A stretch of 64,000 nt of DNA, from sequence record NZ_CP014126.2; one strand, written 5' to 3'. The notes under the pieces are model-generated. The model was not told where the DNA came from. It was given only the letters and a program-made list of their open reading frames with translations, and did no database searches. This document shows, piece by piece, positions 5,662 through 23,305 of this stretch; position 1 is the first letter of the stretch, and each line of letters opens with the position of its first letter. The position numbers were made by a program, and so were the translations under genes. The stretch comes from a plasmid.

Positions 5662-6660
5662 ATGATAAAAAATTACAGAATCCCGGGACTGACCGCGGTG
5701 GCATTTCTCCTCATAAGTACCATCGCAGGTGCTGCAGAAGCGCGCTGGACGTTTGACGGCGATATCCACAACAATTCCCTTGCTGTCAGTCCCGATGAAA
5801 AAACGGCGGTGGCGTCCTACAGTGAGCGCTCAGACGTGGTGGTCTATGATCTGGCTGCCGGGAAAGTCAGAAAGGTGATGAAGGGCTACGTCACCCCCCG
5901 TAATGCACTTTTCTCTCCGGACGGTAAGGCCATATTTCTTTCTGACAGCAGTCTCGGCGTAGTCAAAAAAATCAGCACCGGGACGCTTGACGTGGCGGCC
6001 ACGCTGCCGCTGGGGCCCGGGGCATTCGGCACGGCCATAAGTCGTGACGGTCAGCGACTGTATGTGAATAACGAGGCCGCCAGCACGCTCTCGGTGTATG
6101 ACCTTACACATGACCGGCCCATTGCAGTTGTGACGGGTTTTGCCCAGCCCCGTCAGGGCATTAAAATCAGCCCGGACGGCAAAACCGTCTACGTCACCAA
6201 CTTTAAGGGCGATAAAATTACCCTGGTTGATGCCGTGACGGGCGACATTCGCGGCGAGATAACCGGCTTCAGCAAGCTGCGCGCCATTTCTGTCAGCGCA
6301 GACGGCCGCACACTGTACGCGGCTAACAGCGGCAGCAACACAATCGCCGTGGTTGACACGCAAAAGCACGTCATTACGGCAACCATTCCCGTGGGTCAGG
6401 ACCCTTACGGTGCCGCGCTGACGCCGGATAACCGCTATGTTTACAGCGGCAACCTTGGCGACAACAGCCTCTCCGTTATTGATACCGCCGCCGGTAAGGT
6501 GGTGTCCACCGTCACCGGACTGGATGCGCCCCGTCAGGCGATTGTCTTCAACAAGGACGGTACCCGCGCGTGGGTGCTGAATAAAGACCTCAGCATTGCG
6601 GTGGTTGACCTGAAAAAGAACCGTGTCATGGCCACGATTAAAAGCCCGCCGCAGACCTGA
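5662..6660 (+). CDS. secreted YVTN-family beta-propeller repeat protein
   Basis: Signal peptide MIKNYRIPGLTAVAFLLISTIAGAAEA. Repeated S/TxDG(K/R)xxYV(T/A)N blades: SPDGKAIFLSD, SRDGQRLYVNN, SPDGKTVYVTN, SADGRTLYAAN, TPDNRYVYSGN, NKDGTRAWVLN. An RBS-spaced ATG is at 5662; the track ORF starts at 5596. Confidence 0.75.
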   Translation: MIKNYRIPGLTAVAFLLISTIAGAAEARWTFDGDIHNNSLAVSPDEKTAVASYSERSDVVVYDLAAGKVRKVMKGYVTPRNALFSPDGKAIFLSDSSLGVVKKISTGTLDVAATLPLGPGAFGTAISRDGQRLYVNNEAASTLSVYDLTHDRPIAVVTGFAQPRQGIKISPDGKTVYVTNFKGDKITLVDAVTGDIRGEITGFSKLRAISVSADGRTLYAANSGSNTIAVVDTQKHVITATIPVGQDPYGAALTPDNRYVYSGNLGDNSLSVIDTAAGKVVSTVTGLDAPRQAIVFNKDGTRAWVLNKDLSIAVVDLKKNRVMATIKSPPQT

Positions 6661-6810
6661 CGCGAAACCTCCCTTACTCCAGCGCAGTGACGATCCTTCG
6701 CAAAGTGGGGTGGTTAATCACTTTTATAGATTTATTTTAGCTAAATAACCTGTTTTAAAGATTTACTCTGACATGCCTATAATCTTTCTGTCTACTCAGG
6801 AGATTCCGGC

Positions 6811-7971
6811 ATGAACGATAAAATATTCACCCTGCATAACGGTGCGCGTCCGCTGAGCGCGCTGAGCAGCCCGAAAGAGGCCATACGACAGTTCACGCCT
6901 AACTGGTTCGCCGCGACCATGGGGACCGGCATCCTGTCGCTGTCTCTGGCGCAGTTCCCCTGGCAGGTTCCGGGATTGCGCCTTGTCGCCGAGGGGCTCT
7001 GGATGTTTAACATCCTCCTGTTCAGCGTCTTTGCCGTGATGTATCTGGCCCGCTGGGTGATGTACTTCGGAGAGGCAAAGCGCATTTTCGGCCATTCAAC
7101 CGTGTCCATGTTCTTCGGCACCATCCCGATGGGCATGGCGACCATCATCAATGGCCTGCTGGCGTTCGGTCTTCCGCGCTGGGGCGCAGACGTTATTCAG
7201 GTGGCACACGCCCTGTGGTGGCTGGACGTGGCGATGTCGCTGCTGTGCGGCGTGTGCATTCCCTACATGATGTTTACCCGGCAGCAGCACAGTATTGACC
7301 AGATGACTGCCGTCTGGTTACTGCCGGTCGTGGCAGCCGAGGTCGCGGCGGTCAGCGGCGGCCTGCTGGCGCCGCACATTGCTGCCCCACACGCGCAGCT
7401 CGGCATCATTATTACCAGCTACGTGCTGTGGGCGTACTCCGTGCCGGTGGCGCTGAGCATCCTCGCCATTCTGCTGCTGCGTATGGCGCTGCACAAGCTA
7501 CCGCACGAAAGCATGGCGGCCTCAAGCTGGCTGGCGCTGGGTCCGATTGGCACCGGCTCGCTCGGCATGCTGGTCATCGGCGGAGATGCGCCCGGGGTGT
7601 TTGCCGCGGCGGGCATGCCGGAAATCGGTCACATCGCGCAGGGCGTGGGGTTCGTTGCCGGCATTCTCTTCTGGGGCTGCGGCCTGTGGTGGATGCTGCT
7701 GGCCACGCTGATAACCGTGCGATACTTCCGTGAAGGCATCCCGTTCAACCTTGGATGGTGGGGCTTTACCTTCCCGCTGGGCGTGTACACCGTGGCCACG
7801 CTCAAGCTGTCTACCCTGATTGACCTCGCATTCTTTAAAGGCTTCGGTGCGCTTCTTGTCGTCATACTGGCGGCCATGTGGCTGCTTGTCGCGGTGAAAA
7901 CAGTGCGTGGGGCATGGAGCGGTAAACTGTTTGTTTCTCCCTGTCTGGCAGGCCTGGATCGGAAGCCGTGA
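6811..7971 (+). CDS. TDT-family (TehA / C4-dicarboxylate / malate / Ssu1-type) anion transporter
   Basis: 386-aa polytopic membrane protein. Hydrophobicity pattern of 10 transmembrane segments; the N-terminal region PNWFAATMGTGILSLSL is typical of TehA-like proteins. Confidence 0.6.
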   Translation: MNDKIFTLHNGARPLSALSSPKEAIRQFTPNWFAATMGTGILSLSLAQFPWQVPGLRLVAEGLWMFNILLFSVFAVMYLARWVMYFGEAKRIFGHSTVSMFFGTIPMGMATIINGLLAFGLPRWGADVIQVAHALWWLDVAMSLLCGVCIPYMMFTRQQHSIDQMTAVWLLPVVAAEVAAVSGGLLAPHIAAPHAQLGIIITSYVLWAYSVPVALSILAILLLRMALHKLPHESMAASSWLALGPIGTGSLGMLVIGGDAPGVFAAAGMPEIGHIAQGVGFVAGILFWGCGLWWMLLATLITVRYFREGIPFNLGWWGFTFPLGVYTVATLKLSTLIDLAFFKGFGALLVVILAAMWLLVAVKTVRGAWSGKLFVSPCLAGLDRKP

Positions 7972-8567
7972 GTGAAACCAGCACATCGATGCAGGACTCG
8001 TTTTTACGCGAGGAATGCCTCGCGGCAGTCACCGCGCCGCATGTGGCCGCGCTGAATCGCTGGGTCAGCGGCCAGCGTCAGGCCGGTGCAGAACTGCCGT
8101 GGTTTGATCCGGCTGACGGCGGGGTTAGGGCCGGACTGCTCGTCCTGCTGCAGTCGCCGGCGCGCAGCAGCCCGTCACCGCGGTTTGTGTCGCGTGATAA
8201 CCCGGGGCCGGCCCAGCAGAACCTTGGGCGGTTTCTGGCGGAAGCCGGTATTTCGCGTCAGGACAGCGTGCTGTGGAATACGGTGCCCTGGGTCAGTCAC
8301 GGGCTGCAGAAACGGCCGTCAGCGGCGGACATCCGCAGAGGCTGCGCCTTGCTTGAGGACGTGCTGGCGTATCTGCCCGCGCTGCGCGTGGTGGTGCTGG
8401 CCGGTGCCGTAGCGGCTCAGGCCCGCGGGACGGTCAATCATCTGTACCCCGGCGTCCCCGTGTTGACGATGCCGCACCCCAGTCCGCTTTCGCTCTGCAC
8501 GAGTCCGGCGGTGACGGAAAACATTCGCCGGGTACTCTGCGAGGCACGGGCTGCGCTGGCAGGCTGA
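7968..8567 (+). CDS. uracil-DNA-glycosylase-superfamily fold protein with divergent active-site motifs
   Basis: Architecture matches family-4 UDG: motif-B-like MPHPSPLS near the C-terminus and a G-x-FLxxAGI...V(L)WNTVPW block. The canonical GE(A/G)PG motif A is replaced by LQSPA. The start GTG overlaps the stop of the transporter gene. Confidence 0.45.
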   Translation: MSETSTSMQDSFLREECLAAVTAPHVAALNRWVSGQRQAGAELPWFDPADGGVRAGLLVLLQSPARSSPSPRFVSRDNPGPAQQNLGRFLAEAGISRQDSVLWNTVPWVSHGLQKRPSAADIRRGCALLEDVLAYLPALRVVVLAGAVAAQARGTVNHLYPGVPVLTMPHPSPLSLCTSPAVTENIRRVLCEARAALAG

Positions 8568-8586
8568 GGGCGCCAGCAGAATAATA

Positions 8587-8615
8587 CTGACAGGTTTTGC
8601 AACCGGCTCTATACT
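8587..8615 (+). promoter_or_regulatory. sigma70-like promoter (CTGACA-17 nt-TATACT) driving the riboswitch-led operon
   Basis: Hexamers with 17-nt spacing sit ~10 nt upstream of the riboswitch aptamer. Confidence 0.45.
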
Positions 8616-8625
8616 CATATGACAA

Positions 8626-8680
8626 GGTGATGGCGTTCCACCTTTCCCAACCGCTCCGTTCCGGAGCTGATGACGCCTGA
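8626..8680 (+). ncRNA. fluoride riboswitch (crcB RNA motif) aptamer
   Basis: GGUGAUGGCGUUCCACC-uuuCCCAACC-GCUCCguuccGGAGC-UGAUGACGCCU matches the conserved GGnGAUGGnGUUCnnCC...AAC...stem...UGAUGAC(U/G)CCU layout. The loop GGCGU can pseudoknot with ACGCC. It sits 85 nt upstream of ppaC. Confidence 0.8.
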
Positions 8681-8764
8681 TGCGACTCTTGATTTTCAGG
8701 AGGTGCGTCAGGCCGTCCTTACTTTCTTCCCGGCCTGCGTACTTCCCTCTTCGGGGAGAGACCT

Positions 8765-9673
8765 GTGATACACGTTTTTGGCCACATCAATCCTGACAGC
8801 GACGCCATCTGCACGGCCTTCGTCACCGCGCACTGGCTGACCGGGCGCGGCATGGACGCCCGCGCATGGCGTCTTGGCGAAGCTAACCGCGAAACCCATT
8901 TTATCTTTGACACCGCCGGACTCACGCTGCCGCCACGGCTTGATATTCCGCTACAGGATGAACGGGTCTGGCTGGTCGATTTCACCGAGCCGGCGCAGGG
9001 ACCTGACGACCTGCTCCGGAGCAACATCGTGGGGATCACTGACCACCACCGGCTGGGCGGACTGATAACGCAACTGCCGCCGGAGGTACACATACGCCCG
9101 CTTGGCAGCAGCGCCACGCTGCTGTGGCTGCTTATGAACGCTGAAGCGCGACGCACGCTGCCCCCGACGCTTGCCATTCTTCTGCTGGGTGCACTCCTGA
9201 GCGACACCGTGAATCTTCGCTCGCCCACCACGACCGAAGACGATATCCGTTCGGCTACCGAGCTGGGCGTACTGTCCGGCGTAAACCGCAGAGCCTTCGC
9301 CCGTGACCTCCTTACGGCAAAAACTGACGTCAGCGGCCTCAGCGCACAGCTGCTGCTGGACAGGGACCTCAAGGCCTTCGTCATTGCCGGCACTGACGTG
9401 CGCATCGCCCAGATTGAGGTCAGCTCCCCGTCACAGGTTGCCACCGTGATGGACGACCTGCTCGCTGCCCTGGCGTATCTGGCAGACCAGTCGGGTGCTG
9501 GTTTGGCGGTGCTGATGCTGACCGACATCCGGGCCGGGTTTTCAACGCTTTATTTCGCCGGGCGGGAGAGCGTTAACGCGGCCTCCTGCTCCGTACCGGG
9601 TATGCTCAGCCGCAAAAAACAGCTTCTGCCGTGGCTTGAGTCCCGCCTCAACCAGAACGGGAGTTCATTATGA
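8765..9673 (+). CDS. ppaC: DHH-family, family II (Mn-dependent) inorganic pyrophosphatase
   Basis: N-terminus (M)IHVFGHINPDSDAIC is DHH motif I. DHH motif: GITDHHRLG. The C-terminus SRKKQLLPWL matches the PpaC C-terminal signature. GTG start follows a GGGGAGAG RBS. Confidence 0.8.
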   Translation: MIHVFGHINPDSDAICTAFVTAHWLTGRGMDARAWRLGEANRETHFIFDTAGLTLPPRLDIPLQDERVWLVDFTEPAQGPDDLLRSNIVGITDHHRLGGLITQLPPEVHIRPLGSSATLLWLLMNAEARRTLPPTLAILLLGALLSDTVNLRSPTTTEDDIRSATELGVLSGVNRRAFARDLLTAKTDVSGLSAQLLLDRDLKAFVIAGTDVRIAQIEVSSPSQVATVMDDLLAALAYLADQSGAGLAVLMLTDIRAGFSTLYFAGRESVNAASCSVPGMLSRKKQLLPWLESRLNQNGSSL

Positions 9674-10095
9674 CCTGCTACACCCATGCATTGATACTTG
9701 TGAACGATAAAGACGACGGCACCCTCCTGCTGAAGCGGGCGGTCGCGCTGGCGCAGCCGCTCGGCATGAAAATCACCCTGGCCCACATCAGCGACGACTA
9801 CCGGGAAATGAACTACGTGTCCGACAGCCTGATGGACGACGTCGTGTCGGAAGAGGTGCTGAAATCCAAAGCGTTTATGAGCGAGCTGGCGGCCTCCGTG
9901 CCTGAGACGGTAGACATGCGGGAGCTGGTGACCATGCGCCGCTTTGAGGACGTGGAGAAGTGCATCGCTGAGCTGGGCGTGGACCTCGTGCTTGCCGGGC
10001 ACCGAAACCGCTTTATGGGAATGCTGACGTCCCGCTCGGCGGAATACATTAACCACCTCACGGTGGATGTGCTTATCACTCACCTGAATGACTGA
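9670..10095 (+). CDS. universal stress protein (UspA family)
   Basis: 141 aa. HAL(I)LVNDKDDG...LAHISDD...GVDLVLAGHRNRF...VDVLITH resembles the Usp ATP-binding fold pattern. Overlaps the ppaC stop. Confidence 0.7.
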   Translation: MTCYTHALILVNDKDDGTLLLKRAVALAQPLGMKITLAHISDDYREMNYVSDSLMDDVVSEEVLKSKAFMSELAASVPETVDMRELVTMRRFEDVEKCIAELGVDLVLAGHRNRFMGMLTSRSAEYINHLTVDVLITHLND

Positions 10096-10110
10096 ACCGG
10101 GAGAAACTCT

Positions 10111-11400
10111 ATGCGCTTTACACTGGATAACGTGACCGCCCGTGAAATTCTTGACTCTCGCGGCAACCCCACCGTTGAAGTCGAAGCCCGGACCGTGGAC
10201 GGAATGATGGCGCGGGCCTCGGTGCCTTCCGGGGCCAGCACCGGCTCGCGCGAGGCCGCTGAGCGCCGCGACGGCGACGTACACCGTTTTGGCGGTAAAG
10301 GCGTACTGGATGCTGTCAGGACGGTTAATACGGAAATCTGCGAAGCCTTGCGCGGCAGGGACGTGCGCGAGCAGCGTCAGCTGGATAACATCATGCTGGC
10401 GCTGGACGGTACGCAGAGCAAGAGTCGGCTGGGTGCCAATGCCATTCTGGGCGTGTCGCTGGCGGTTGCCCGGCTGGCGGCACAGGCCTCGCACGAGCCG
10501 CTCTGGCGCTACCTGGGGGGCCTGCAGGCGAACCTGCTGCCCGTACCGTGCATGAACATTATCAACGGCGGCGTGCACGCCCGCGGTCAGGGCGCGGACT
10601 TTCAGGAGTTCATGATAGCGCCACACGGGGCACCCACGCTGCGCGAGGCCGTGCGTCAGGGCAGCGAGGTCTACCAGGCGCTGCGCCAGATCCTGCTGGA
10701 CAAGAACCTGTCCGCGGCAGTCGGCGACGAAGGCGGTTTTGCGCCCGCCGTATCGTCGAACCGCGACCCGCTGGCGTTTATCGTGCAGGCCATTGAGAAG
10801 GCGGGGTACAGGCCCGGAGAAGACATCAGCATCTGCATGGACCCTGCCTCAAGTGAGTTTTTCGCAGACGGAAAATATCATCTGCGCACGGAGGGCAGTG
10901 CGCTGAGCGCGGCGGAAATGACGGCGTACTACGGCGAGCTGATGGACCAGTTTCCCGTCATTCTGCTGGAAGACGGCCTGGCAGAAGATGACTGGTCGGG
11001 CTGGAAGCATCTGCACCAGCAGCTTGCGGGCAGGGCCGAGCTGGTTGGTGACGACCTGTTTGTCACCAACGTGAAGTACATCCAGCGCGGCATTGACGAA
11101 AACCTCGCCAGCGCCGCATTGATTAAACTCAATCAGATAGGCTCGCTTAGCGAAACGCTGGACGCCGTGGCGCTCTGCCAGCGGCACGGGTGGGGCGCGT
11201 TCATGTCCCACCGCAGTGGGGAAACGACGGACACATTTCTTGCCGACCTCACGGTAGCCCTGCGCGCGGGACACCTGAAAACCGGTGCGCCGTGCCGCGG
11301 CGAACGCGTGGAAAAGTACAACCAGCTGATGCGCATTGAGCAGGCGCTGGGTGAGGACGCTCACTATGCGGGGCTTCATGCGTTTGTGCGCCGCACGTAA
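10111..11400 (+). CDS. eno: enolase (phosphopyruvate hydratase)
   Basis: 429 aa. N-terminus (V)TAREILDSRGNPTVEVEARTVDG; SHRSGETTDTFLADL catalytic region; IKLNQIGSLSETLDAV signature. Confidence 0.9.
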   Translation: MRFTLDNVTAREILDSRGNPTVEVEARTVDGMMARASVPSGASTGSREAAERRDGDVHRFGGKGVLDAVRTVNTEICEALRGRDVREQRQLDNIMLALDGTQSKSRLGANAILGVSLAVARLAAQASHEPLWRYLGGLQANLLPVPCMNIINGGVHARGQGADFQEFMIAPHGAPTLREAVRQGSEVYQALRQILLDKNLSAAVGDEGGFAPAVSSNRDPLAFIVQAIEKAGYRPGEDISICMDPASSEFFADGKYHLRTEGSALSAAEMTAYYGELMDQFPVILLEDGLAEDDWSGWKHLHQQLAGRAELVGDDLFVTNVKYIQRGIDENLASAALIKLNQIGSLSETLDAVALCQRHGWGAFMSHRSGETTDTFLADLTVALRAGHLKTGAPCRGERVEKYNQLMRIEQALGEDAHYAGLHAFVRRT

Positions 11401-11443
11401 CAGATCCACCGGACGGCCAGCGGCCGGCACAGGAGCACAGTCT

Positions 11444-12145
11444 TTGGCACCTTCAACGCTGATTCTCCTGCGCCATGGCGAAAGCCAGTGGAACCGGGAA
11501 AACCGTTTTACCGGATGGACAGACGTGCCGCTGACGGACCGGGGGCGGCAGGAGGCTGACCGGGCCGGTGACGTGCTGCGGGACGCGGGCCTGCTGCCCG
11601 ATCGGGTCTTCACCTCGGTGATGACGCGCTGTGTTCACACGGTCTGGCGGGTGCTGGACCGTCTTGGCCGCAGCTGGACGCCCGTGGACAAACACTGGCG
11701 GCTGAACGAGCGGCACTACGGTGCGCTGCAGGGGCTGAACAAGGAAGCGGCTGCCCGGATGATGGGTGCAGAGACCGTCCGGCTCTGGCGCAAAAGCTTC
11801 AGCGGCATTCCCCCCGCGGACGCAGGGGCTCCGGCGCAGCTGCGTCGGGACCCGCGCTACAGCCGCGTTGCGCTGGCCGACCTGCCTGCGACGGAAAGCC
11901 TGGAAATGACGCTGCGTCGCGTCATGCCCTACTGGCAGCACGCCGTGATGCCGCAGATACTCTGCGGAAGTACCGTTCTGGTCGTGGCGCACGGCAACAC
12001 GCTGCGCGCCCTGGCCGCCTTCCTGGACGGCATGCCACACGACAGCTTGGCACAGTTGCATATCCCGACCGGCGTGCCGGCCGTATACCAGATGGATGCG
12101 GCCGCACAGGTCGTTTCCCGTTATGTTCTGAATATAAAAAAATAA
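11444..12145 (+). CDS. gpmA: 2,3-bisphosphoglycerate-dependent phosphoglycerate mutase
   Basis: LILLRHGESQWNRENRFTGWTDVPLT is the histidine-phosphatase RHGE motif. The probable start is TTG at 11444, 8 nt after AGGAG. The track ORF (from 11336) overlaps the eno 3' end and is probably over-extended. Confidence 0.75.
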   Translation: MAPSTLILLRHGESQWNRENRFTGWTDVPLTDRGRQEADRAGDVLRDAGLLPDRVFTSVMTRCVHTVWRVLDRLGRSWTPVDKHWRLNERHYGALQGLNKEAAARMMGAETVRLWRKSFSGIPPADAGAPAQLRRDPRYSRVALADLPATESLEMTLRRVMPYWQHAVMPQILCGSTVLVVAHGNTLRALAAFLDGMPHDSLAQLHIPTGVPAVYQMDAAAQVVSRYVLNIKK

Positions 12146-12150
12146 AAGGA

Positions 12151-12531
12151 GTGAACGTGAATCAGCTTTTTGCTGTCATCACCGGCGGTGCTTTAGGGTG
12201 TGTTATCCGCTGGCAGCTGGGCGCGCGCCTGAACGCGCTTTTTCCGGACCTGCCGCCGGGGACGCTGCTGGTCAACCTGCTGGGAGGGTTTATCATCGGA
12301 GCGGCGCTGGCGTATTTTCTGCGCCATCCCGGCCTCGATCCGGCCTGGCGGCTGCTCATTACCACCGGGCTGTGTGGCGGAATGACGACCTTCTCCACGT
12401 TCTCGGCTGAGGTTTTTGCCCTGCTGCAGTCCGGCAGCTATGCCTGGGCAGCCGCCTCGGTGCTGATACACGTGCTGGGTTCGCTGGCCATGACGGCGGC
12501 CGGATTTTATATCATGACGCTGTGTGGTTAA
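12151..12531 (+). CDS. crcB: CrcB/Fluc fluoride ion channel
   Basis: 126 aa with four transmembrane segments and the GGxTTFSTF signature (CGGMTTFSTFSAE). GTG start follows AGGAG. Confidence 0.85.
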   Translation: MNVNQLFAVITGGALGCVIRWQLGARLNALFPDLPPGTLLVNLLGGFIIGAALAYFLRHPGLDPAWRLLITTGLCGGMTTFSTFSAEVFALLQSGSYAWAAASVLIHVLGSLAMTAAGFYIMTLCG

Positions 12532-12546
12532 CCCGAGGGAGACCTT

Positions 12547-12566
12547 AGTGCAGTGACCGCTGCACT
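12547..12566 (+). terminator. stem-loop (agtgcag-N6-ctgcact) immediately 3' of crcB
   Basis: 7-bp inverted repeat 16 nt after the crcB stop. Confidence 0.4.
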
Positions 12567-12664
12567 GAGGTATATTGTTCAGAAGCGCTCTCTGCAGGCC
12601 AGACCTGACAGGGTTTACGCTTGTAATGCTTCCCGTACACCTGAGGCGCTGCTGTGAAAGAATT

Positions 12665-13078
12665 TCAGGCCTGCCTGTTCTGGTAAAGGTCCCAGCGATT
12701 GCCGTAGATGTCCTCAAATACGACAACCATTCCGTATTCTTCCTCCCGTGGCTCCTGAAAGAAGTGGACGCCTTTTGCCTTCATAGCATTGTAGTCGCGC
12801 CAGAAGTCGTCGGTCTGCAGGAACAGAAAAACCCGTCCGCCGCACTGATTGCCGATAAAGCCTTCCTGCCGGTCGTTCGACGCGCGGGCAAGAAGAATAG
12901 CACAGTCGCTGTCAGGGGCCGGCGTCACCACGACCCAGCGCTTACCCGGCTGCGGCGTGTCTTCAATGAGGGTAAAGCCCAGCTTATCGGTGTAGTACTC
13001 AATTGCACGATCGTAGTCATCGACCACGACCGCCACGTATCCCATACATCGCTTCTGTTTTCTCATCTGCTGCTCCAT
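12665..13078 (-). CDS. VOC-family (glyoxalase / bleomycin-resistance fold) protein
   Basis: MGYVAVVVDDYDRAIEYYTDKLGFTLIED...ILLARA...GRVFLFLQTDDFWRDYNAMKAKGVHF is typical of a paired betaalphabetabetabeta module. Confidence 0.65.
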   Translation of the reverse strand: MEQQMRKQKRCMGYVAVVVDDYDRAIEYYTDKLGFTLIEDTPQPGKRWVVVTPAPDSDCAILLARASNDRQEGFIGNQCGGRVFLFLQTDDFWRDYNAMKAKGVHFFQEPREEEYGMVVVFEDIYGNRWDLYQNRQA

Positions 13079-13191
13079 CAGTTACGGCATTACGCCCGTT
13101 ATAATCAGCTTTATATCAAATACGGCGTTCAGTTATCTGTACTGATTCTGCACTGATACCCTCAGACCTGACATTGTAAGCATCTGAGCAG

Positions 13192-15363
13192 TCAGGATTG
13201 TGGGCCCAATCTTGTAAGAGCCTGCTCAACCTTTTCAGCATCCTGCTCCAGTATGGCTCTCTCATCGGGAGTGAGCGGGACCTCTTCGAGGTAACGCCGG
13301 ATGGATGCTTTACTCTCCAGTATCAGCCCGCGCGCGCTATCCTTCAGCAGGTTAAAATCGCAGCCGATGCAGGCCATCCGGTGCGGGCAACTGCTCCAGA
13401 AGGGGTTCGTACAGTATGAGTCGCCCAGATCGTAGTAGGTCGCGGGCCCGGACAGGCTGGCGGCTTCAGGATCGTGGTCAACCAGCACGCTTATCATATG
13501 AGCGACCCTGTCGGCTTTGACGAACGAGGCAGCCAGCTGAGTCGGGCGGATGCGAAGATAGTGCATTGTAGACTGGGGCGTTGAATGGCCCGTCCACTGC
13601 ATCAGTTCGTACAGCGACATGCCCTGCGGTACGCTCGCCAGCGCGGTCACGGCTGAGGCCCGCCCCCGGTGGCTGGTTATCATTCCGCCACTGTCTTCAC
13701 AAGGCACGCCCGCTCTTGCGCATAGCATCGGTATCACGGTGCGGTTGAGGATAGCGCTGCCGGCAGGCTTACCCCGGTACTGAAACAGAAGCCGGACTTT
13801 CTCACCGGTTCGCTCGTCAGCGAGCAAAGCCTGTTCTGCCGGACGCTCATCCAGCCATATGTCGACGTATTTTTTCACCACGGCCGCCACCGGTTTAACA
13901 AAGGCTTTTGAGGTTTTTCCGGCAGGGATATGCAGGTAACACAGGGTTCCTGCCGGGATGATACTTCCGTCGTCCTTCACGATATCGTCCGCCTGCGGCG
14001 CGATGCACCCGGTTGTCAGGCGGAGCAGTTCGTTCTTTCTTACCCCCGCATGGGTCCAGATGACGGCCATTGCCTGCAGCATGGCCAGTGGATAATGTAT
14101 TTCAGTGAGCAGATCTTCCTGACGCAGATTGAGGCTGGCCCAGATGAGCTTCAGCCAGACCGGATCGTCAATAACACGGGGATTGACGCCGCGACGGAAC
14201 AGCGGCGTATCCGGTGTGGAAAGATGGCGGGCAGGGCTGAAGTGCAGGCGCCCCCAGCCCCAGTTTTCGTAATCAATCATAAAACGGCGCAGAGAATAGA
14301 TAAAATGCGCCCTGGAATGCGGCATCATGGGCTCGCCGGAGCGCACCGATTTGCCGGTGCCCCTTTCCGTGCCCAGCTGAAGCTCATCCACGTTCATCCG
14401 GCCTACCGCCGCAATGAAGCTGGCGCAGGTTTCCATTGTCCAGTCTGCCGGTTCCCGAACCTCCGGATGCTCCTTTTTCAGCCAGAGGCCGCAGCGCAGA
14501 ATAAAGCTGTACTGGCTTTCACGGGTGCGCGGCCTGAGCACCGACGTTTCCCGCCAGCGCCGGCACCAGTGCACCCAGGCCGGATCGACGCCTTCGACCG
14601 GCTTTTCGTACCATTTTTTATAGTTTCGCATCCTCACCGGGGCGCTGATAATCCCCAGTGCGGCAAGTGCATGTGAAACGCGGCCGACGTAACGGGATAT
14701 TCCCTTGTCTGTCCCGCTCTGGGCGCGCCAGAGGAGTTCAGGCGTAAACGTTTCAAGCCGGGGATCCCTGTTCATGATCATCAGTGTTGCCAGTATACCC
14801 GAGACATGATTTTTCTGGCTGGTCGGGGCATAACCCAGCGACGTCAGCGTATCAGTCAGCCGGTCCAGCTCCTGGTGATAAAAAGCCTGGCCGAAGATGG
14901 CAGAAGCATAGAGCGCGGGTTTACGTATATCAGGCAGGCTGAGCGGGTCATGCAAATCAGCCAGATGCCAGGCAAAAGCGGCCATTAACGGACGGCCCTC
15001 CCTGACTTCCCGGCACAGCGTCAGCCAGCGTTCCTGCGGCCAGCACCAGCAGGGCATGCCGTCTGCATGCATTTCGCGCAGCAATCCGGCTATCACCAGC
15101 CCCGTGATTTTGCTGCCGCATCCGCTTCCGGCGGCAATGTCCATCAGCGGCCTGATGAGGTCCGGCACCGGCTTCGTTCGCAGCATACGGGACCGGCTGT
15201 GAGCGCTGCTCAGTGCCGTCCGTTCAGCGAGGGTCAGTGACGCCTCAAGCCGGTATTCAGTCATGTCGAACGGATGCCGGCTGTTTTCAATCGGTGTGTG
15301 TGGGCTCATGTTATTTCTCTGTTCTGAAAATGAGGTTCGCCATCCTGATATCTGCCGTTTCAA
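13192..15363 (-). CDS. large tyrosine recombinase (723 aa) with a long N-terminal extension
   Basis: The C-terminus carries ...ITSHRGRASAVTALA... (HxxR) and ...GHSTPQSTMHYLRI (H...Y nucleophile). It overlaps the upstream small recombinase gene by 53 nt, which suggests an operon. Confidence 0.7.
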   Translation of the reverse strand: MKRQISGWRTSFSEQRNNMSPHTPIENSRHPFDMTEYRLEASLTLAERTALSSAHSRSRMLRTKPVPDLIRPLMDIAAGSGCGSKITGLVIAGLLREMHADGMPCWCWPQERWLTLCREVREGRPLMAAFAWHLADLHDPLSLPDIRKPALYASAIFGQAFYHQELDRLTDTLTSLGYAPTSQKNHVSGILATLMIMNRDPRLETFTPELLWRAQSGTDKGISRYVGRVSHALAALGIISAPVRMRNYKKWYEKPVEGVDPAWVHWCRRWRETSVLRPRTRESQYSFILRCGLWLKKEHPEVREPADWTMETCASFIAAVGRMNVDELQLGTERGTGKSVRSGEPMMPHSRAHFIYSLRRFMIDYENWGWGRLHFSPARHLSTPDTPLFRRGVNPRVIDDPVWLKLIWASLNLRQEDLLTEIHYPLAMLQAMAVIWTHAGVRKNELLRLTTGCIAPQADDIVKDDGSIIPAGTLCYLHIPAGKTSKAFVKPVAAVVKKYVDIWLDERPAEQALLADERTGEKVRLLFQYRGKPAGSAILNRTVIPMLCARAGVPCEDSGGMITSHRGRASAVTALASVPQGMSLYELMQWTGHSTPQSTMHYLRIRPTQLAASFVKADRVAHMISVLVDHDPEAASLSGPATYYDLGDSYCTNPFWSSCPHRMACIGCDFNLLKDSARGLILESKASIRRYLEEVPLTPDERAILEQDAEKVEQALTRLGPQS

Positions 15364-16312
15364 TCGCGCCAGCCATCCGGGCAGCCAGGTCCCTGCCAGA
15401 AAGATGAATATAAATCTGTGTTGTGGTCAGGTCGCGGTGTCCTGCATAGGTGGCAAGTTCGTGCAACTTCCAGCCCGCGCGGGCAAGGTGTGTGAGTCGC
15501 AGGTGCCGGAAGGTATGGGTTGAGATGTCCGGCATCCCAGACTCAAGCGCCCATTTCCGTACCGTTTTGCTCCAGGTCCAGAATGAAAGCGGCCCGCCCT
15601 GATTACGATCGGACTCAGAACGGAACAGGGCACCTCTTACGATTCCGGTCCGCTTCATCTGCATAAGGTGCGCGGCCAGCACTGGCACTACTGCCGGGCT
15701 GTAACAGACAATTCGTTCACGCCGGCTCTTGGTGGTTTCTGCCCGGATGCGGATGAGCCGGTGAGCAAAGTCGAAGTCGTCAATACTTAGCGAGGTAATT
15801 TCAGACCGACGCAGCGCGCCGTAATAGGTTAATGCCAGCATCAGGCGGTCACGCAGTGGGGAAGCGGCGGCATGATAAAGAAAACACTGCCACTGCGCAT
15901 CGTCAGGAATGCGCGGCAGCTTTACAACGCGGGGAACCAGTCCCCGGCCGGAACTCAGCATGCCGGGCGTGCCGGATCGGGGCAGCGGATTGACCGTGCA
16001 AAGATCCAGGTACATGAGAAAGTCATACCAGAGGCGGATCGCCGACAGGCGAAGCTGGAGCGTGGCGCTGGCCGCGGAAAAAGGCATCCCGGGTAACTGA
16101 GGACTAATATAGGCAGCCAGGTCTTCAAACCGCGCCTTTTCAGGTTTAATTCCGTTCTGGCTGCAGAACGCAAAGTAATGACGGAGGGCATTGCGGTAGG
16201 CTGTTAGCGTGGCCTGCGCCCGCCCCAGATCGGATAACAGTTGCAGCCAGCGCTCTGCCAGCAACAGAACGTGTTCACTCGGTGGAATCAGCATTGCATT
16301 CTCCTCTGACAA
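15311..16312 (-). CDS. tyrosine recombinase, XerD-like (333 aa)
   Basis: C-terminus HTFRHLRLTHLARAG...LATYAGHRDLTTTQIYIHL gives the complete R..HxxR..H/Y catalytic set. It is the first gene inside the right end of the element. Confidence 0.8.
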   Translation of the reverse strand: MSEENAMLIPPSEHVLLLAERWLQLLSDLGRAQATLTAYRNALRHYFAFCSQNGIKPEKARFEDLAAYISPQLPGMPFSAASATLQLRLSAIRLWYDFLMYLDLCTVNPLPRSGTPGMLSSGRGLVPRVVKLPRIPDDAQWQCFLYHAAASPLRDRLMLALTYYGALRRSEITSLSIDDFDFAHRLIRIRAETTKSRRERIVCYSPAVVPVLAAHLMQMKRTGIVRGALFRSESDRNQGGPLSFWTWSKTVRKWALESGMPDISTHTFRHLRLTHLARAGWKLHELATYAGHRDLTTTQIYIHLSGRDLAARMAGAIETADIRMANLIFRTEK

Positions 16313-16364
16313 CAGCTTTGCTGTTCAAAGTTTACTCAATCAATGTTGCATTCCACGTAACTTA

Positions 16365-16607
16365 CTAGAGCGCGTAGTTTGAACTAAAGACGTGCACACG
16401 CTCGGCAAAATCCTGATTTTTTATCTGGAACCACGGCGCGCCCATTTTAATGCCCAGCTTTTTTGCGCCGGCGCTGCGCGCGATGATGCAGCCGTCATTG
16501 TTCGACAGGACGACAACGGGCTTACCGCGCAGATCAGGGCGAAACAGTGCTTCGCAGCTGGCATAAAACGAATTGACGTCGGCCAGGCCAAACATTGGCA
16601 TGATCAC
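16365..16607 (-). pseudogene. umuC: umuC 5' fragment (first ~78 codons), fused to element-derived codons
   Basis: MFGLADVNSFYASCEALFRPDLRGKPVVVLSNNDGCIIARSAGAKKLGIKMGAPWF...HVFSSNY aligns with the N-terminus of the intact UmuC (MFALADANNFYASCETVFRPDLRGKPIVVVSNNDGCVIARSAEAKRLGVKMAAPLF...HVFSSNYEL), then ends in AL-stop. It overlaps the umuD stop. Confidence 0.85.
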
Positions 16608-17053
16608 CTCCGGCGGGCTCGGGTACTGTTGAAGAACCAGGTAACCACACCGAGCAGCTGCAGCTCCTCCGGATAAATTACCGGATAGGCCGGGTTCATC
16701 GGCAGCAGTGCGAGCCTGGGCTGCAGCTGCAGACGCTTGACCGTAAATTCGCCGTTAACCTCAGCGATCACTATGTCGCCGTGAGCCGCCTCTTCTGCCC
16801 GGTCAACCACCATGACATCACCATCGCAGAGACCGAGATCCCGCATACTGTTTCCACTGGCGCGCACGAAAAAAGTTGAGGCGCGCCGGCGAATGCAGAG
16901 CTCATTCAGATCGAGTTCTTTCTCAACGTAATCCTGAGCGGGGGAAGGGAAGCCGGCGGCGCAAGGATCAGCATACAGCGGCACCCGGACACGGGGCGTA
17001 AATATGGGTGGCCAGAGCAACGTCAGCCCGGGAGTATAGTTACCCGGATTCAT
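16604..17053 (-). CDS. umuD: UmuD, SOS mutagenesis protein (canonical, self-cleaving type)
   Basis: Cleavage-site region PCAAGFPSPAQDYVE; catalytic Ser in ASGNSM and Lys in EFTVKRLQL, matching UmuD/LexA S24 peptidases. Confidence 0.85.
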   Translation of the reverse strand: MNPGNYTPGLTLLWPPIFTPRVRVPLYADPCAAGFPSPAQDYVEKELDLNELCIRRRASTFFVRASGNSMRDLGLCDGDVMVVDRAEEAAHGDIVIAEVNGEFTVKRLQLQPRLALLPMNPAYPVIYPEELQLLGVVTWFFNSTRARRR

Positions 17054-17131
17054 GACCTGATGCCCAGGCCATACTGCAGCAGTACTGCGGAAACTTTGTT
17101 GAAATTGCGCATAAAATTCCTCCTCTTATTT

Positions 17132-17151
17132 TACTGTTTATATGTACAGTA
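17132..17151. promoter_or_regulatory. LexA (SOS) box TACTGTTTATATGTACAGTA
   Basis: Perfect CTGT-N8-ACAG palindrome 80 nt upstream of minus-strand umuD. Confidence 0.85.
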
Positions 17152-17350
17152 TTATTGAGGTGAATTAATCTGGCAAGAGGGAGCGAAGCGGCCATGTATA
17201 AAAGCGAAGCCATCTGTCTGACAGAATAGGAAATTTTATGAAGGTCAGCCCGGCACTAAGTGGCCCGGCAGCTTTAACAGTAATGCAGAATGTATGTTTG
17301 GTGTGTAAGCAGTTCATGCCGGCATCGGTGAAATGACGCTTCCTCGCCAC

Positions 17351-17389
17351 GGCTGTTCGTTCCTCGCTGCGCTGCGGTACGCCTCAGCC
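17351..17389. repeat. dispersed 39-bp repeat GGCTGTTCGTTCCTCGC..CGCTGCGGTACGCCTCAGCC (copy 1)
   Basis: Near-identical (37/39) to 53807-53845, which lies inside the tra operon. Confidence 0.5.
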
Positions 17390-17508
17390 GGGCCTGCGGC
17401 GAGCGTTACAATTGCACGTTCAGGGAAAGAAATATGCAGCCCTGTTACTCTTCCGGCTTACCTATTCCGGCAACAATACCCAGCTGAGAGATGCGAACCA
17501 TAAAAGCG

Positions 17509-18189
17509 TTAATCCTTATCTGCCGGTGAGGCCTCGATAAGCTCACTACCCTGGTGATGAATATTGCCAACTTTTTTGCTGACAGGATGCCAGGTAAATG
17601 CTTTTTCCGGAACGGCTGCATCGCGGGCAATTTCTTCTGCACGCGCTGGAGACGTTTCGTCACTGAGCCATTCACGAACAGCATCAGGCGTAATCACCAG
17701 CGGCCGCCTGTCATGTATATCGACCATGCCCTGATTGCTGGCTGACGTGACAATCACGAAGCCCTCTTTGCCGTGATCCTGCCCGTACGGCTGCCTGCCG
17801 ATGGCGGCGAAGAAAAGTGGCTCCTTTTTTTTGTGAAAGATGAAGAATGGCTGCTTCTCACCACCTTCTTTCTGCCATTCGAACCAGCCGTCAGCAGGCA
17901 CGATAGCGCGGCCATGATTCCAGAGAGGCTTAAACATGCGGCCGCTCGCAGCCGTCTCACCGCGCGCGTTGATAAGTGGCTGCTTATCCCACCATTCCGG
18001 TCCGTAGCCCCAATATACCGGATCGAGGCGCAACGAATCTTCCTGTTCGTGTAGCAGTAACACTTTAGTGCCTGGTGCTACGTTAAAGCGCCCGAGAGGT
18101 TCCGGATCGAATGTGATTTCGTCCGGTGTCAGGCCGAGTGAGTCAAAATAATCGTCGCGGCTGCTGTACTGCGCAAATCTTCCACACAT
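17509..18189 (-). CDS. SOS-response-associated peptidase (SRAP / YedK-like, DUF159)
   Basis: N-terminal MCGRF with catalytic Cys2; 226 aa; conserved WNHGRAIVPADGWFEW. It lies between two umuDC operons. Confidence 0.8.
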   Translation of the reverse strand: MCGRFAQYSSRDDYFDSLGLTPDEITFDPEPLGRFNVAPGTKVLLLHEQEDSLRLDPVYWGYGPEWWDKQPLINARGETAASGRMFKPLWNHGRAIVPADGWFEWQKEGGEKQPFFIFHKKKEPLFFAAIGRQPYGQDHGKEGFVIVTSASNQGMVDIHDRRPLVITPDAVREWLSDETSPARAEEIARDAAVPEKAFTWHPVSKKVGNIHHQGSELIEASPADKD

Positions 18190-18314
18190 AGTTACCTCCT
18201 GCTGTTGATGTAAGGATAGCGACGTATACTGATATCAGGAGTATTAAATGCGCCTGTATGACGGACACCCGGTCGTTATCAGGTTCACCTCACAAGGCTG
18301 AAAAGCTGTAAATA

Positions 18315-18707
18315 ATGGAGATATTCATGGCCTTTCAGAGCCCGGCCCAGAACTACACCGAAACGCGCCTGAGTCTGGGCGATCTGGTGCATCTTTCCCC
18401 TTACTCTACCTATCTGATGCGCAGCGAAAGCGACTGTCCAGATGCTGGTATTATTAAAGGGTCCGTGCTGGCAATCGATCGCGCGCTGACACCGGCACAC
18501 GGTCAGTTAATCGTTGCCGAGCTCGAGGGAGAACTGACGCTGAGGCGGCTGCTGCTTAATCCGGTTCCTGCCCTGCAGGCGCTGGACGCGGACGAAACTG
18601 TTACGCTGCTTGATGTAAGCCATGTGCTGCCAGTGTGGGGTGTGGTTGCCTATGCCCTCACCGATGTAGCCGGAGTGGGATTTAACGGACTGGCAGGAGA
18701 TGAGTAA
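18315..18707 (+). CDS. UmuD'-like protein: begins at the post-cleavage position and has a degenerate Ser/Lys dyad
   Basis: It aligns with UmuD from GFPSPAADYV onward (AFQSPAQNYTE...). The ~24-residue arm and Cys-Gly cleavage site are absent; an in-frame TAA lies 2 codons upstream. Catalytic GDSM becomes SDCP (Ser->Cys) and VKKL becomes LRRL (Lys->Arg). Confidence 0.7.
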   Translation: MEIFMAFQSPAQNYTETRLSLGDLVHLSPYSTYLMRSESDCPDAGIIKGSVLAIDRALTPAHGQLIVAELEGELTLRRLLLNPVPALQALDADETVTLLDVSHVLPVWGVVAYALTDVAGVGFNGLAGDE

Positions 18708-19969
18708 TGTTTGCGCTGGCCGATGCCAACAATTTTTACGCCTCATGCGAAACCGTATTCAGGCCCGATCTGCGTGGTAAACCGATTGTCGTCGTGTCGA
18801 ACAACGACGGATGCGTTATCGCACGATCGGCCGAGGCAAAGCGTTTAGGGGTTAAAATGGCCGCCCCGCTGTTCCAGAATGAGCGTTATTTCAGGCAGAA
18901 CGGTGTGCACGTGTTCAGCTCAAACTACGAGCTATACGGCGACATATCTGCACGCATGATGGCCATACTGGGCGAGATGGCCGCGGGACAGGAAGTCTAT
19001 TCCATCGATGAGTCATTTCTGGACGTTACCGGGATTGATAACCTTATCCCGCTTGAGGCATTCGGGCAGCAGATGCGCGAGCGTATCCGGAAGGAAACCG
19101 GGCTGATAATCGGCGTGGGGTTCGGGCCGACCAAAACCCTGGCCAAACTTGCTAACCATGCATCTAAAAAGTGGACGCAGACGAATGGCGTCGTAGATCT
19201 GTCAGACAGAAGCCGACAACGAAAACTCCTTCATCTGACTGATGTCAGTGATATCTGGGGCATTGGCCGGCGGATCAGCCTGCGCATGAACCAGCTGGGA
19301 ATCACCACGGCACTGCAGCTCGCTGACAGCAATGTCAGCATGATACGTAAGAACTTCGACGTTATCGTCGAGCGCACCGCGCGTGAACTCAATGGTGAGT
19401 CTTGCCTGGCACTTGAAGACGCACCTCCGCCTAAGCAGCAGATAGTGAACTCACGTTCTTTTGGCCAGCGCGTTACACAGTTAGAAGATATGCAGCAGGC
19501 GCTCGTGCTTTATGCCACGCGTGCTGCGGAAAAGCTCAGGCAGCAGAATTCACGCTGCCGCCATATAAGCGTCTCGATCGCCACCGGTCGCCACGGTGAT
19601 GAACCGCAGTATTCAAATACGGCCTCACGCATATGCGATTATCCGACGAACGACACGCGGGACATTATTGAATCAGCACTTCGAGGCCTCAGCACTATCT
19701 GGCAGGAGGGTTACCGGTATGCGAAAGCCGGCGTAATGCTGGGTGATTTTTACCAGTCAGGCGTGGCACAGTTCGACATGTTCAGTGAGCAGCAGCCGCG
19801 TGCAAATGCAGATGCATTAATGGCAGCGCTGGACGGCATCAATCGCGCAGGCAAAGGAAAGGTCTGGTTCGCGGGTCAGGGAAATCGCGACAGTTCATGG
19901 CAGATGAAGCGTGAAATGCTGTCGCCGCGCTATACCACGCGCATAAAAGATATTCCGCGAATTAAATAA
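18707..19969 (+). CDS. umuC: UmuC, Y-family DNA polymerase V catalytic subunit (intact, 420 aa)
   Basis: MFALADANNFYASCETVFRPDLRGKPIVVVSNNDGCVIARS...SIDESFLDVTG...full length. Start overlaps the upstream stop (TAATG). Confidence 0.9.
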   Translation: MFALADANNFYASCETVFRPDLRGKPIVVVSNNDGCVIARSAEAKRLGVKMAAPLFQNERYFRQNGVHVFSSNYELYGDISARMMAILGEMAAGQEVYSIDESFLDVTGIDNLIPLEAFGQQMRERIRKETGLIIGVGFGPTKTLAKLANHASKKWTQTNGVVDLSDRSRQRKLLHLTDVSDIWGIGRRISLRMNQLGITTALQLADSNVSMIRKNFDVIVERTARELNGESCLALEDAPPPKQQIVNSRSFGQRVTQLEDMQQALVLYATRAAEKLRQQNSRCRHISVSIATGRHGDEPQYSNTASRICDYPTNDTRDIIESALRGLSTIWQEGYRYAKAGVMLGDFYQSGVAQFDMFSEQQPRANADALMAALDGINRAGKGKVWFAGQGNRDSSWQMKREMLSPRYTTRIKDIPRIK

Positions 19970-20043
19970 CTTTAAGTTATAAAGCTAGGTGAATCTGTTC
20001 ATGCAATTCACTTCACCCTAGCGCTATTTTATGAATAATGCTG

Positions 20044-21443: not shown

Positions 21444-22088
21444 ATGTCCCGATTCATGCGTGGCGACAGCGTACAGATCATGGCCGGCTTTCCGGATAAC
21501 AGCATCGACTTCATTCTGACCGATCCCCCGTACCTCGTCGGCTTTAAGGACCGGTCCGGCCGTTCGATCGCGGGCGACGTGAGCGACGAGTGGGTACTGC
21601 CGGCCAGCCGTGAAATGTTCCGCGTGCTCAAAAACAACAGCCTGGCGGTAAGCTTCTACGGCTGGAACCGCGTGGACGTCTTTATGCAGGCGTGGAAATC
21701 CGCGGGCTTCCGCGTCGTCGGGCACCTCGTCTTCACCAAAACCTACGCTTCGAAATCGGCGTTTGTCGGGTATCAGCATGAAAGCGCCTACCTGCTGGCC
21801 AAAGGGCGCCCGCCGCTGCCTGCAAAGCCCTTACCTGACGTGATGCCCTGGAAGTACACGGGCAACCGGCACCATCCGACCGAAAAGCCGGTGAGCGTAT
21901 TGCAGCCGCTTATCGAAACCTTCACGAAGCCCGGGGATTTAATTCTGGACCCGTTTGCCGGTTCAGGTTCGACCTGCGTCGCCGCGGACCAGTGCGGCCG
22001 CCGCTGGATAGGGATCGAACTACTTGAGGAGTACCACGCCGCCGGCCTGCGCCGCCTGGGTGAACTGCGCGCCGCCCGTGCCGCATAA
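21444..22088 (+). CDS. orphan DNA methyltransferase (beta-class N6A/N4C, DPPY motif)
   Basis: Motif IV ILTDPPYL precedes motif I DPFAGSGST (circularly permuted beta-class order). 214 aa; typical of leading-region methylases. Confidence 0.75.
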   Translation: MSRFMRGDSVQIMAGFPDNSIDFILTDPPYLVGFKDRSGRSIAGDVSDEWVLPASREMFRVLKNNSLAVSFYGWNRVDVFMQAWKSAGFRVVGHLVFTKTYASKSAFVGYQHESAYLLAKGRPPLPAKPLPDVMPWKYTGNRHHPTEKPVSVLQPLIETFTKPGDLILDPFAGSGSTCVAADQCGRRWIGIELLEEYHAAGLRRLGELRAARAA

Positions 22089-22804: not shown

Positions 22805-23305
22805 ATGACATTTAGCGGACCAGCGGTATACGTCGGGACTTACCATAAATATAACTGCGGCAGTATTTTCGGGAAGTGGTTTGATCTTACTGACTTTGAG
22901 GAAAAAACCGAGTTTCACAACGCGTGTCGCGAGCTCCATGCCTCTGAAGAAGATCCTGAATTTATGTTTCAGGACTGGGAGGGCATTCCGTCTAAATTCG
23001 TGTCTGAATCCTTTATCGACTGGGATTTCATCGCGGCGTGGAAGCAGGCGAAAGAAGAGGGCAGGGAAGACGCCTTTGTTGCATGGGCGGATTATTCCGG
23101 CGGGTGCGATTTCGACGCATTTGATGATGCGTACAGGGGGAAGGCGGAAAGTGAGGAAGATTATGCGTATGAGCATATTGAAGACTGCGGCCTGCTGAAT
23201 GACGTTCCGGAGCCGCTGCGCTCTTATTTCGACTATGAAGCCTATGCCCGTGACCTGTTCAGCAGCGGATATGTGCTGCACGACGGCTTTGTATTCAGCA
23301 ACTGA
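22805..23305 (+). CDS. ardA: ArdA anti-restriction protein (DNA mimic)
   Basis: MTFSGPAVYVGTYHKYNCGSIFGKWFDLTDFEE...PEFMFQDWEGIP is the ArdA N-terminal signature; strongly acidic overall. Confidence 0.85.
   Translation: MTFSGPAVYVGTYHKYNCGSIFGKWFDLTDFEEKTEFHNACRELHASEEDPEFMFQDWEGIPSKFVSESFIDWDFIAAWKQAKEEGREDAFVAWADYSGGCDFDAFDDAYRGKAESEEDYAYEHIEDCGLLNDVPEPLRSYFDYEAYARDLFSSGYVLHDGFVFSN

Follow-up and report, generated by a model that had tools for sequence, protein, structure and literature searches.

A plasmid operon that probably encodes a Pol V-type translesion polymerase with its accessory subunit made directly in the UmuD' form

The subject of this analysis is a stretch of 64,000 nucleotides (nt) of plasmid DNA from sequence record NZ_CP014126.2 (hereafter the window) and, within it, a short UmuD-like gene that is followed by its own umuC. 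An earlier interpretation made from the letters alone (the sequence-only reading) had described two divergent umu loci with an SRAP/YedK gene between them (Pfam SRAP, 176.3 bits; 17509-18189), and had assigned to the right one an intact umuC and a umuD homologue that starts where mature UmuD' starts; these points were borne out. We consider it probable, at roughly 0.72, that the right locus encodes a complete translesion polymerase of the DNA polymerase V (Pol V) type, the accessory subunit of which is made directly in the UmuD' form. The right locus comprises the following features.

18327-18707, plus strand: HumD-like 'ready-cut' UmuD' homologue of 126 amino acids (aa), without the N-terminal arm and without the Ser/Lys dyad (family scores, alignments, ratio of nonsynonymous to synonymous divergence [dN/dS], structure model)
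18707-19969, plus strand: intact umuC of 420 aa, its start overlapping the stop of the short gene (TAATG); NCBIfam NF002955, 632.9 bits against a cut-off of 431
18190-18326, no strand: divergent intergenic region of 137 nt between the SRAP gene and the short gene, devoid of a LexA box (matrix scan and CTG-N10-CAG scan)

The start of the short S24 gene was placed at the ATG at 18327 (126 aa) and not at 18315 (130 aa), because a GGAG lies at 18317-18320 with a 6-nt spacer, because RefSeq annotates the same start (381 nt) in relatives, and because the MAFQ start is conserved in all homologues. The armless UmuD' form that had been attributed to a 130-aa protein was retained, and only its length had to be corrected. 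An in-frame TAA is located upstream of the gene (18309-18311), and at its other end the stop codon overlaps the umuC start codon by 1 base (TAATG, 18705-18709). The protein begins with Met-Ala-Phe-Gln-Ser-Pro-Ala; its residue 2 aligns with residue 1 of the UmuD' structure 1i4v (phmmer, E = 1.8e-16), MAFQSPA being in register with GFPSPA of UmuD'. The replacement of the catalytic Ser by Cys and of the Lys by Arg, as first proposed, amounts to loss of the dyad: Cys37 aligns with Ser60 of Escherichia coli UmuD in the HMMER alignment, the MAFFT alignment puts Asp36, not Cys37, at the catalytic Ser position, and Arg73 aligns with Lys97. With no arm and the dyad lost, the short protein can neither need nor perform RecA-mediated self-cleavage.

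Family scores place the short protein within the S24 group, where it passes the cut-off of Pfam Peptidase_S24 (PF00717; 24.8 bits, cut-off 23.3). The NCBIfam HumD family NF051876 was still its best-scoring curated family, albeit below the cut-off (89.5 bits versus 120), and the alignment to this profile runs end to end from residue 1 (residues 1-119 versus profile positions 1-123), while the NCBIfam UmuD family NF007621 gave 72.4 bits, also below its cut-off of 110. A single-chain AlphaFold model based on an 87-sequence alignment, used in place of a shallow family-only alignment that gave a predicted local distance difference test (pLDDT) score of 39.7, reached a mean pLDDT of 81.7 with a core near 90; the beta-core is confidently modelled, the first ~25 residues are flexible and the last 10 are disordered. 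The best PDB matches of this model in Foldseek were the UmuD' structures 1umu and 1ay9 (template-modelling score, TM, 0.74), with LexA and lambda cI ranking behind. According to Pfam and the model, all 126 aa are accounted for by an S24 beta-domain with short tails, and there is no DNA-binding domain. The C-terminal tail (residues ~112-126; 18660-18704) carries a motif, TDxAGxGF, that is conserved in the short-protein family and absent from UmuD; it is predicted to be disordered and resembles the ...SGEFDD tail of phage HumD proteins.

The partner polymerase is 57% identical to E. coli UmuC and, in alignment with it, keeps the catalytic residues D6, D101 and E102 as well as the steric-gate residue Y11. 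It has QFDMF where the clamp motif QLNLF stands, and its C-terminal DUF4113 domain is present (Pfam, 73.6 bits). Among related loci with a complete copy of the short gene, a umuC of this right type, or its first 76 codons, lies directly downstream in 29 out of 29, the spacing between the two genes being a 1-nt overlap, 5 nt, or 60-100 nt.

A homologue search covering 5.8 billion proteins yielded about 150 homologues of the short protein in Pantoea, Erwinia, Mixta, Duffyella, Winslowiella, Cronobacter and Chimaeribacter, almost all of them 123-126 aa long and all starting with MAFQ[SN]PA. The N-terminal motif is the most conserved part of the protein, and across the family the residue equivalent to the catalytic Ser varies among Cys, Phe, Tyr and Ser, and Arg almost always stands in place of the Lys. 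The median pairwise dN/dS of the gene is 0.10 (n = 116 pairs with 0.1 < dS < 1.5), dS being saturated between subgroups. In most of the 29 loci a GGAG-type ribosome-binding site precedes the gene, and the sequences upstream, which show no relationship from one subgroup to another, have in-frame stops at 0-104 codons from the gene. A frameshifted full-length umuD, the finding that the sequence-only reading had named as speaking for a simple pseudogene, was looked for in the 29 related loci and not found, and tblastn of 12 different UmuD arms against the 300 nt upstream of these loci gave noise only. Judged from these data, the right locus is not 'compromised', as had been thought: its design is conserved, and the purifying selection acting on it is strong.

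Two candidates for a remnant of the arm were also rejected. For the intergenic region 18190-18326, three-frame translations scored at best 26 against UmuD arms, while shuffled sequences gave 20.5 ± 3.7 and 56 of 500 shuffles did equally well. The short open reading frame (ORF) at 18248-18301, which had been suggested to be a decayed piece of the arm, showed no similarity to UmuD arms (score 11-12), and its ATG is not conserved even in close relatives.

In order to describe the regulation of the right operon, we scanned its upstream region with a LexA weight matrix composed of 19 E. coli sites. The best score in the 400 nt upstream of the short gene was -1.7 bits, as compared with 24.8 bits for the box of the left umuD, and in the corresponding 400 nt of 28 relatives no LexA box was detected, the best score there being 9.0 bits, 343 nt upstream. 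A CTG-N10-CAG motif was likewise absent from 18190-18326 and from the 28 relatives. With both scans empty, LexA control of the right operon was rejected; this lack of a LexA box, like the phage precedent described below, had been overlooked in the sequence-only reading. The lack of a box is a result, and constitutive expression is what we infer from it.

When eight related upstream regions are compared, a single block is conserved, TATACTGA (18225-18232), of which TATACT (18225-18230) is plausibly a -10 element. Neither a convincing -35 element nor a further operator was identified in the upstream region, and a sigma-70 promoter scan returned only a weak match that overlaps the ribosome-binding site and is no better than those in shuffled sequences. 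A perfect 10-bp palindrome, CTGATATCAG (18229-18238), overlaps the conserved TATACT and is kept in most, not all, relatives. It was discarded as a LexA site, being not of the LexA type and broken in loci L008 and L013, and may be the operator for another regulator. In three related loci (L012, L014 and L015) a yedK remnant is separated from the short gene by extra sequence, inserted about 200 nt upstream, with a small ORF (MNYYQKLSQP...) that may be PerC-like and that is joined to the short gene in some gene predictions (e.g. P0068, 206 aa).

The concept of a genetically encoded UmuD' is not new, its precedent being HumD of phage P1 (1999). The GenBank record of P1 states that HumD 'functionally complements E. 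coli UmuD'', and annotates a LexA site upstream and no umuC. Stand-alone short UmuD-like genes are also found as N15 gp26 and phiKO2 gp23, and in HK639, HK140, D6 and Hafnia phages. The source paper on P1 HumD, a natural UmuD' homologue, is McLenigan et al. 1999 (J Bacteriol 181:7005). Like P1 HumD and the phage proteins, the protein described here is a short UmuD homologue that starts with Met-Gly/Ala-Phe-x-Ser-Pro-Ala at the position of the UmuD' N-terminus, and it shares with the phage HumD proteins a length of 125-129 aa and a short C-terminal extension beyond UmuD with a Gly-x-Phe motif. It is 38-40% identical to the Hafnia phage protein, as compared with 31-32% for P1 HumD and 30-34% for E. 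coli UmuD and the left UmuD of the window. It departs from P1 HumD in three respects: (i) the phage genes stand alone without umuC, whereas the gene here overlaps a cognate umuC, (ii) P1 humD has an annotated LexA site, whereas no LexA box precedes this gene, and (iii) in our own alignment P1 HumD keeps Ser and Lys at the dyad positions, both of which the short-protein family has lost.

With UmuD/UmuD'-UmuC of E. coli (Pol V), MucAB, ImpAB and RumAB the right locus has in common the S24 fold (1i4v, 1umu, 1ay9) and the arrangement of a small gene overlapping umuC. Unlike the UmuD, MucA, ImpA and RumA type, it lacks the N-terminal arm with its Cys/Ala-Gly cleavage site, the Ser-Lys dyad and a LexA operator. 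What is new is that the gene lies on a plasmid, is translationally coupled to a cognate umuC and has no LexA site, and that the dyad of its product has decayed completely. We found no description of a HumD-like/umuC operon in the literature, which is weak evidence since the search was limited to open-access papers.

To see how widespread ready-cut forms are, we turned to a profile search of 1.84 billion cluster representatives, which gave 3749 matches (E ≤ 0.001), and aligned the top matches and the references to E. coli UmuD. Both Ser and Lys were kept in only 3 out of 54 armless sequences (≤3 residues before the Gly25 position), as compared with 61 out of 81 sequences with an arm of ≥10 residues. 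The sample is biased, being ranked by similarity to the short-protein family and including fragments and non-independent members, so that the association of arm loss with dyad loss is indicative only. The second residue of the ready-cut forms, where readable, is Gly, Ala, Ser or Thr, all of which permit removal of the initiator Met by methionine aminopeptidase. In lineages unrelated to Pantoea, ready-cut S24 genes of 114-134 aa starting with M[GA]FPSPA lie directly upstream of umuC (L041, 3001-5913; L044, 714-2368) or divergent from it (L042, 1543-3405). The L041 pair is followed by a 165-aa gene of no assigned function and an SRAP gene; of the two upstream pairs, one, with a 1-nt overlap, has SRAP downstream. 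Ready-cut forms are widespread, and such pairing of unrelated ones with umuC indicates that the design is not restricted to Erwiniaceae. A tblastn search of PLSDB with two unrelated ready-cut forms (P0229 and P0185) retrieved distant full-length UmuDs only.

Two further kinds of UmuD homologue were noticed. Some proteins, predicted to be full-length but non-cleavable, keep the arm and lack the dyad (e.g. P0212, P0213, P0216, P0260 and P0187); in the set of 81 with an arm, the Lys is replaced by Arg in 15 and the Ser by Ala in 7. Others (P0122, P0128, P0130 and P0136; ~250-285 aa) consist of two tandem UmuD-like domains. In the tandem proteins read, an arm and an (A/C)G-(F/W)PSP site are present in the first copy and the arm motif is missing from the second; in some, a dyad residue has also been lost from one copy. 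They may represent single-chain UmuD-UmuD' fusions.

The left locus, the island inside it and the SRAP gene contribute the following features.

16604-17053, minus strand: canonical full-length umuD, 149 aa (NCBIfam NF007621, 145.9 bits, cut-off 110; Pfam Peptidase_S24, 91.9 bits)
17132-17151, no strand: palindromic LexA (SOS) box TACTGTTTATATGTACAGTA upstream of the left umuD (24.8 bits; CTG-N10-CAG with AT-rich spacer)
16366-16595, minus strand: proximal left umuC fragment, codons 1-76/77 (Pfam IMS, 60 bits; tblastn)
4378-5419, minus strand: distal left umuC, codons ~77-424 (tblastn with the intact umuC of L002; Pfam IMS, IMS_C and DUF4113)
~5420-16365, no strand: 10.9-kilobase (kb) island within the left umuC (junction reading; Pfam; Rfam)
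17509-18189, minus strand: SRAP/YedK-family gene, 226 aa, with N-terminal MCGRF (Cys2) (Pfam SRAP PF02586, 176.3 bits)

The description of the left umuD as canonical and self-cleaving, located behind a perfect LexA box, and of its umuC as split by the island, proved accurate. The protein has its cleavage site at Ala33|Gly34 (CAAG|FPSP), Ser69 in GNSM and Lys106 in VKRL, and TACTGTTTATATGTACAGTA is the top LexA site of the whole 64 kb by 13 bits, the runner-up scoring 11.8 bits. By tblastn, residues 1-76 of the proximal umuC fragment are 87% identical to L002 UmuC and the distal fragment is 88% identical over residues 74-424. The proximal fragment ends at a TAG created at the island junction, and an internal ATG at 5412 opens a 345-aa ORF in the distal fragment (4375-5412, minus strand). 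When the flanks are joined they read CTC TA|C CAC AGC, which restores the frame (...ALYHS...). The left locus is therefore an ordinary LexA-controlled umuDC whose umuC served as the integration site of a site-specific island. The neighbouring SRAP protein scores 338.9 bits with NCBIfam PRK09951, slightly under the cut-off of 349, and a link of SRAP genes with UmuC-type polymerases has already been described (PMC12926913; PMC3765255).

The island is inserted after umuC nt 230 and is bounded by an imperfect terminal inverted repeat, GTGGAATGCAA. At its umuD-proximal end it encodes two tyrosine recombinases (Phage_integrase) on the minus strand, of 333 aa (15311-16312) and 723 aa (13192-15363). 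As the ATG of the first (16312) lies 53 nt past the junction on the same strand as umuD, this gene is placed downstream of the LexA-controlled umuD promoter, which is more than the simply broken left locus of the sequence-only reading. The GC content of the island is ~57-65% across most of 6-16 kb versus ~52-54% in both umu loci. Its cargo includes a fluoride riboswitch (8617-8686; Rfam RF01734, 51 bits) followed by a family-II DHH pyrophosphatase (8765-9673), an enolase (10111-11400), a GpmA-like phosphatase (11336-12145) and CrcB (12151-12531), together with a SLAC1/TehA-like channel (6811-7971), a UDG-like gene and a glyoxalase-family gene. From this gene content the island looks like a fluoride-resistance element.

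Of 34 related genome loci, at least 10 (L007, L008, L010, L013, L018, L021, L028, L031, L032 and L038) have a umuC that is interrupted at this same codon (~76, FSSNY(E/A)LY motif), as do several plasmids (matches H5-H8, H11 and H21, and the E. coli plasmid H56), and both umuC types are affected. The repeated break at one codon indicates a site-specific hot spot and points to a family of umuC-targeting elements in Erwiniaceae. The island resembles the rulB-targeting integron-like elements (ILEs) of Pseudomonas (Rhodes et al. 2014, PMC4542609) in that umuC/rulB is hit and umuD/rulA left intact, in that the truncated 5' fragment is followed, within a few tens of nt and on its own strand, by a recombinase gene, and in that variable 'fitness' cargo lies at the far end; moreover, the 345-aa distal ORF is of the same size as the 'rulB(2)' ORF after ILE insertion in pWW0 (PMC4542609). 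It differs from the ILEs in having two recombinase genes, whereas the ILE module has three plus tetR (no TetR gene was seen in the island), in its terminal sequences, in its fluoride-riboswitch operon cargo, and in its host family, Erwiniaceae as opposed to Pseudomonas.

The closest matches of the region are Pantoea agglomerans plasmids, the top one showing 94% identity over 97% of 16300-20000. The complete module, with its gene order retained, was found in four PLSDB plasmids: umuC, umuD and SRAP are on the minus strand, followed on the plus strand by the short gene, labelled 'S24 peptidase', and another umuC. Beyond the right umuC, the window has an orphan N6/N4 DNA methylase gene (21444-22088) and an ArdA antirestriction gene (22805-23305). 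Anti-defence islands of plasmid leading regions are often bounded by umu operons (PMC11541004), and the methylase and ArdA genes next to the umu genes would fit such a block.

How the right operon may work can be outlined by analogy with Pol V. If the initiator Met is removed from in front of Ala, the N-terminus would line up exactly with Gly25-Phe-Pro-Ser-Pro-Ala of E. coli UmuD'. [quoted passage not shown] The strong conservation of MAFQSPA fits this model, and its persistence without cleavage argues that it is conserved for polymerase function and not only as a cleavage site. With nothing to cleave, the Ser-Lys dyad would have decayed. RecA*-stimulated autocleavage would be skipped, and LexA repression probably too, because no LexA operator lies upstream in any relative. 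The controls remaining to such a mutagenic polymerase would be proteolysis and RecA/ATP loading onto UmuC, which is expected to be still needed because the C-terminal domain of UmuC is conserved.

Several points weigh against this interpretation. The short protein falls under the curated cut-offs of both HumD (89.5/120) and UmuD (72.4/110), its N-terminus is AFQSP and not GFPSP, and it carries a conserved C-terminal tail, TDxAGxGF, that is foreign to UmuD. The partner umuC is interrupted at codon ~76 in many relatives, where the short protein is consequently without a cognate polymerase. As for expression, the conserved TATACT has a poor -35 and no convincing sigma-70 promoter was found; expression need not be constitutive because a canonical LexA box is missing, and the region may be under another regulator.

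Three other explanations were weighed. A crippled umuDC in the right locus, with the short gene as a decayed umuD pseudogene truncated at its 5' end, is what the reduced length of the gene relative to umuD, the lack of the catalytic Ser and Lys and the barely passed Pfam S24 threshold (24.8 versus 23.3 bits) would suggest; yet a length and an MAFQ start kept in about 150 homologues from several genera, a median dN/dS of 0.10 although dS is saturated between subgroups, a conserved ribosome-binding site and umuC coupling, and the lack of an arm-coding relic upstream at any of the 29 loci make it highly improbable. More improbable still is an active protease or self-processing enzyme with Cys37 as its nucleophile, or a LexA-like repressor as some records have it. 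The Cys does align with the catalytic Ser in the HMMER alignment, and RefSeq product names such as 'phage repressor protein' and 'S24 family peptidase' point the same way, but the Ser position varies among Cys, Phe, Tyr and Ser, the general-base Lys is Arg, no cleavage-site arm is present, and 126 aa made up of the S24 beta-domain and short tails leave no DNA-binding domain.

The remaining alternative, which we regard as unlikely without being negligible, is that the short protein acts as a regulator or decoy, a UmuD' mimic that titrates host UmuD, UmuC or RecA filaments, or is itself switched off by forming a heterodimer with the neighbouring UmuD; it might, for instance, damp or redirect the SOS mutagenesis of the recipient after plasmid entry. 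A role of this kind would suit a locus that adjoins an ArdA and orphan-methylase block typical of plasmid leading regions (often umu-bounded; PMC11541004), that keeps the short gene intact in many genomes where umuC is interrupted, and that encodes a full-length LexA-controlled UmuD 1.3 kb away; the phage homologues, moreover, stand alone and act through host proteins. It is less easily reconciled with the tight, universal linkage to a specific, co-evolving umuC type and the translational overlap in the window, with the intact right umuC and all of its catalytic residues, or with the N-terminal motif needed for Pol V function being the most conserved part of the protein. We therefore retain the reading of the right locus as a Pol V-type polymerase with a directly made UmuD' subunit.

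A wider proposal is possible, although we hold it to be rather doubtful: that a 'born-activated' Pol V is a recurrent, so far unrecognised design and not a phage oddity, with a pre-cut UmuD' operon-coupled to UmuC, outside LexA control and RecA-dependent cleavage, and with RecA loading as the sole damage checkpoint. It would have arisen or spread in several lineages by arm loss followed by dyad decay, Lys changing to Arg; on Erwiniaceae plasmids, where it borders the anti-defence block of the leading region, it could enable an incoming plasmid to bypass lesions or act as a mutator as soon as it enters a new host, whatever the SOS state of that host, and the neighbouring LexA-controlled full-length UmuD might be an off-switch by heterodimer formation.

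The short genes are mis-annotated, the names in use being 'S24 family peptidase', 'phage repressor' and 'autoproteolytic subunit'. Pol V is the textbook case of a dangerous enzyme kept behind locks, namely LexA repression, slow RecA*-dependent cleavage of UmuD, proteolysis, and RecA/ATP loading. The family offers a natural experiment, in which a GFPSPA-type motif kept without cleavage supports a role of the N-terminus in UmuC function, and in which the dyad decays once cleavage is obsolete. A conserved and selected plasmid operon with the cleavage lock genetically removed and no LexA operator raises the question of how much of Pol V regulation is dispensable in nature, and whether such plasmids act as constitutive or fast mutators in plant-associated and clinical Erwiniaceae.

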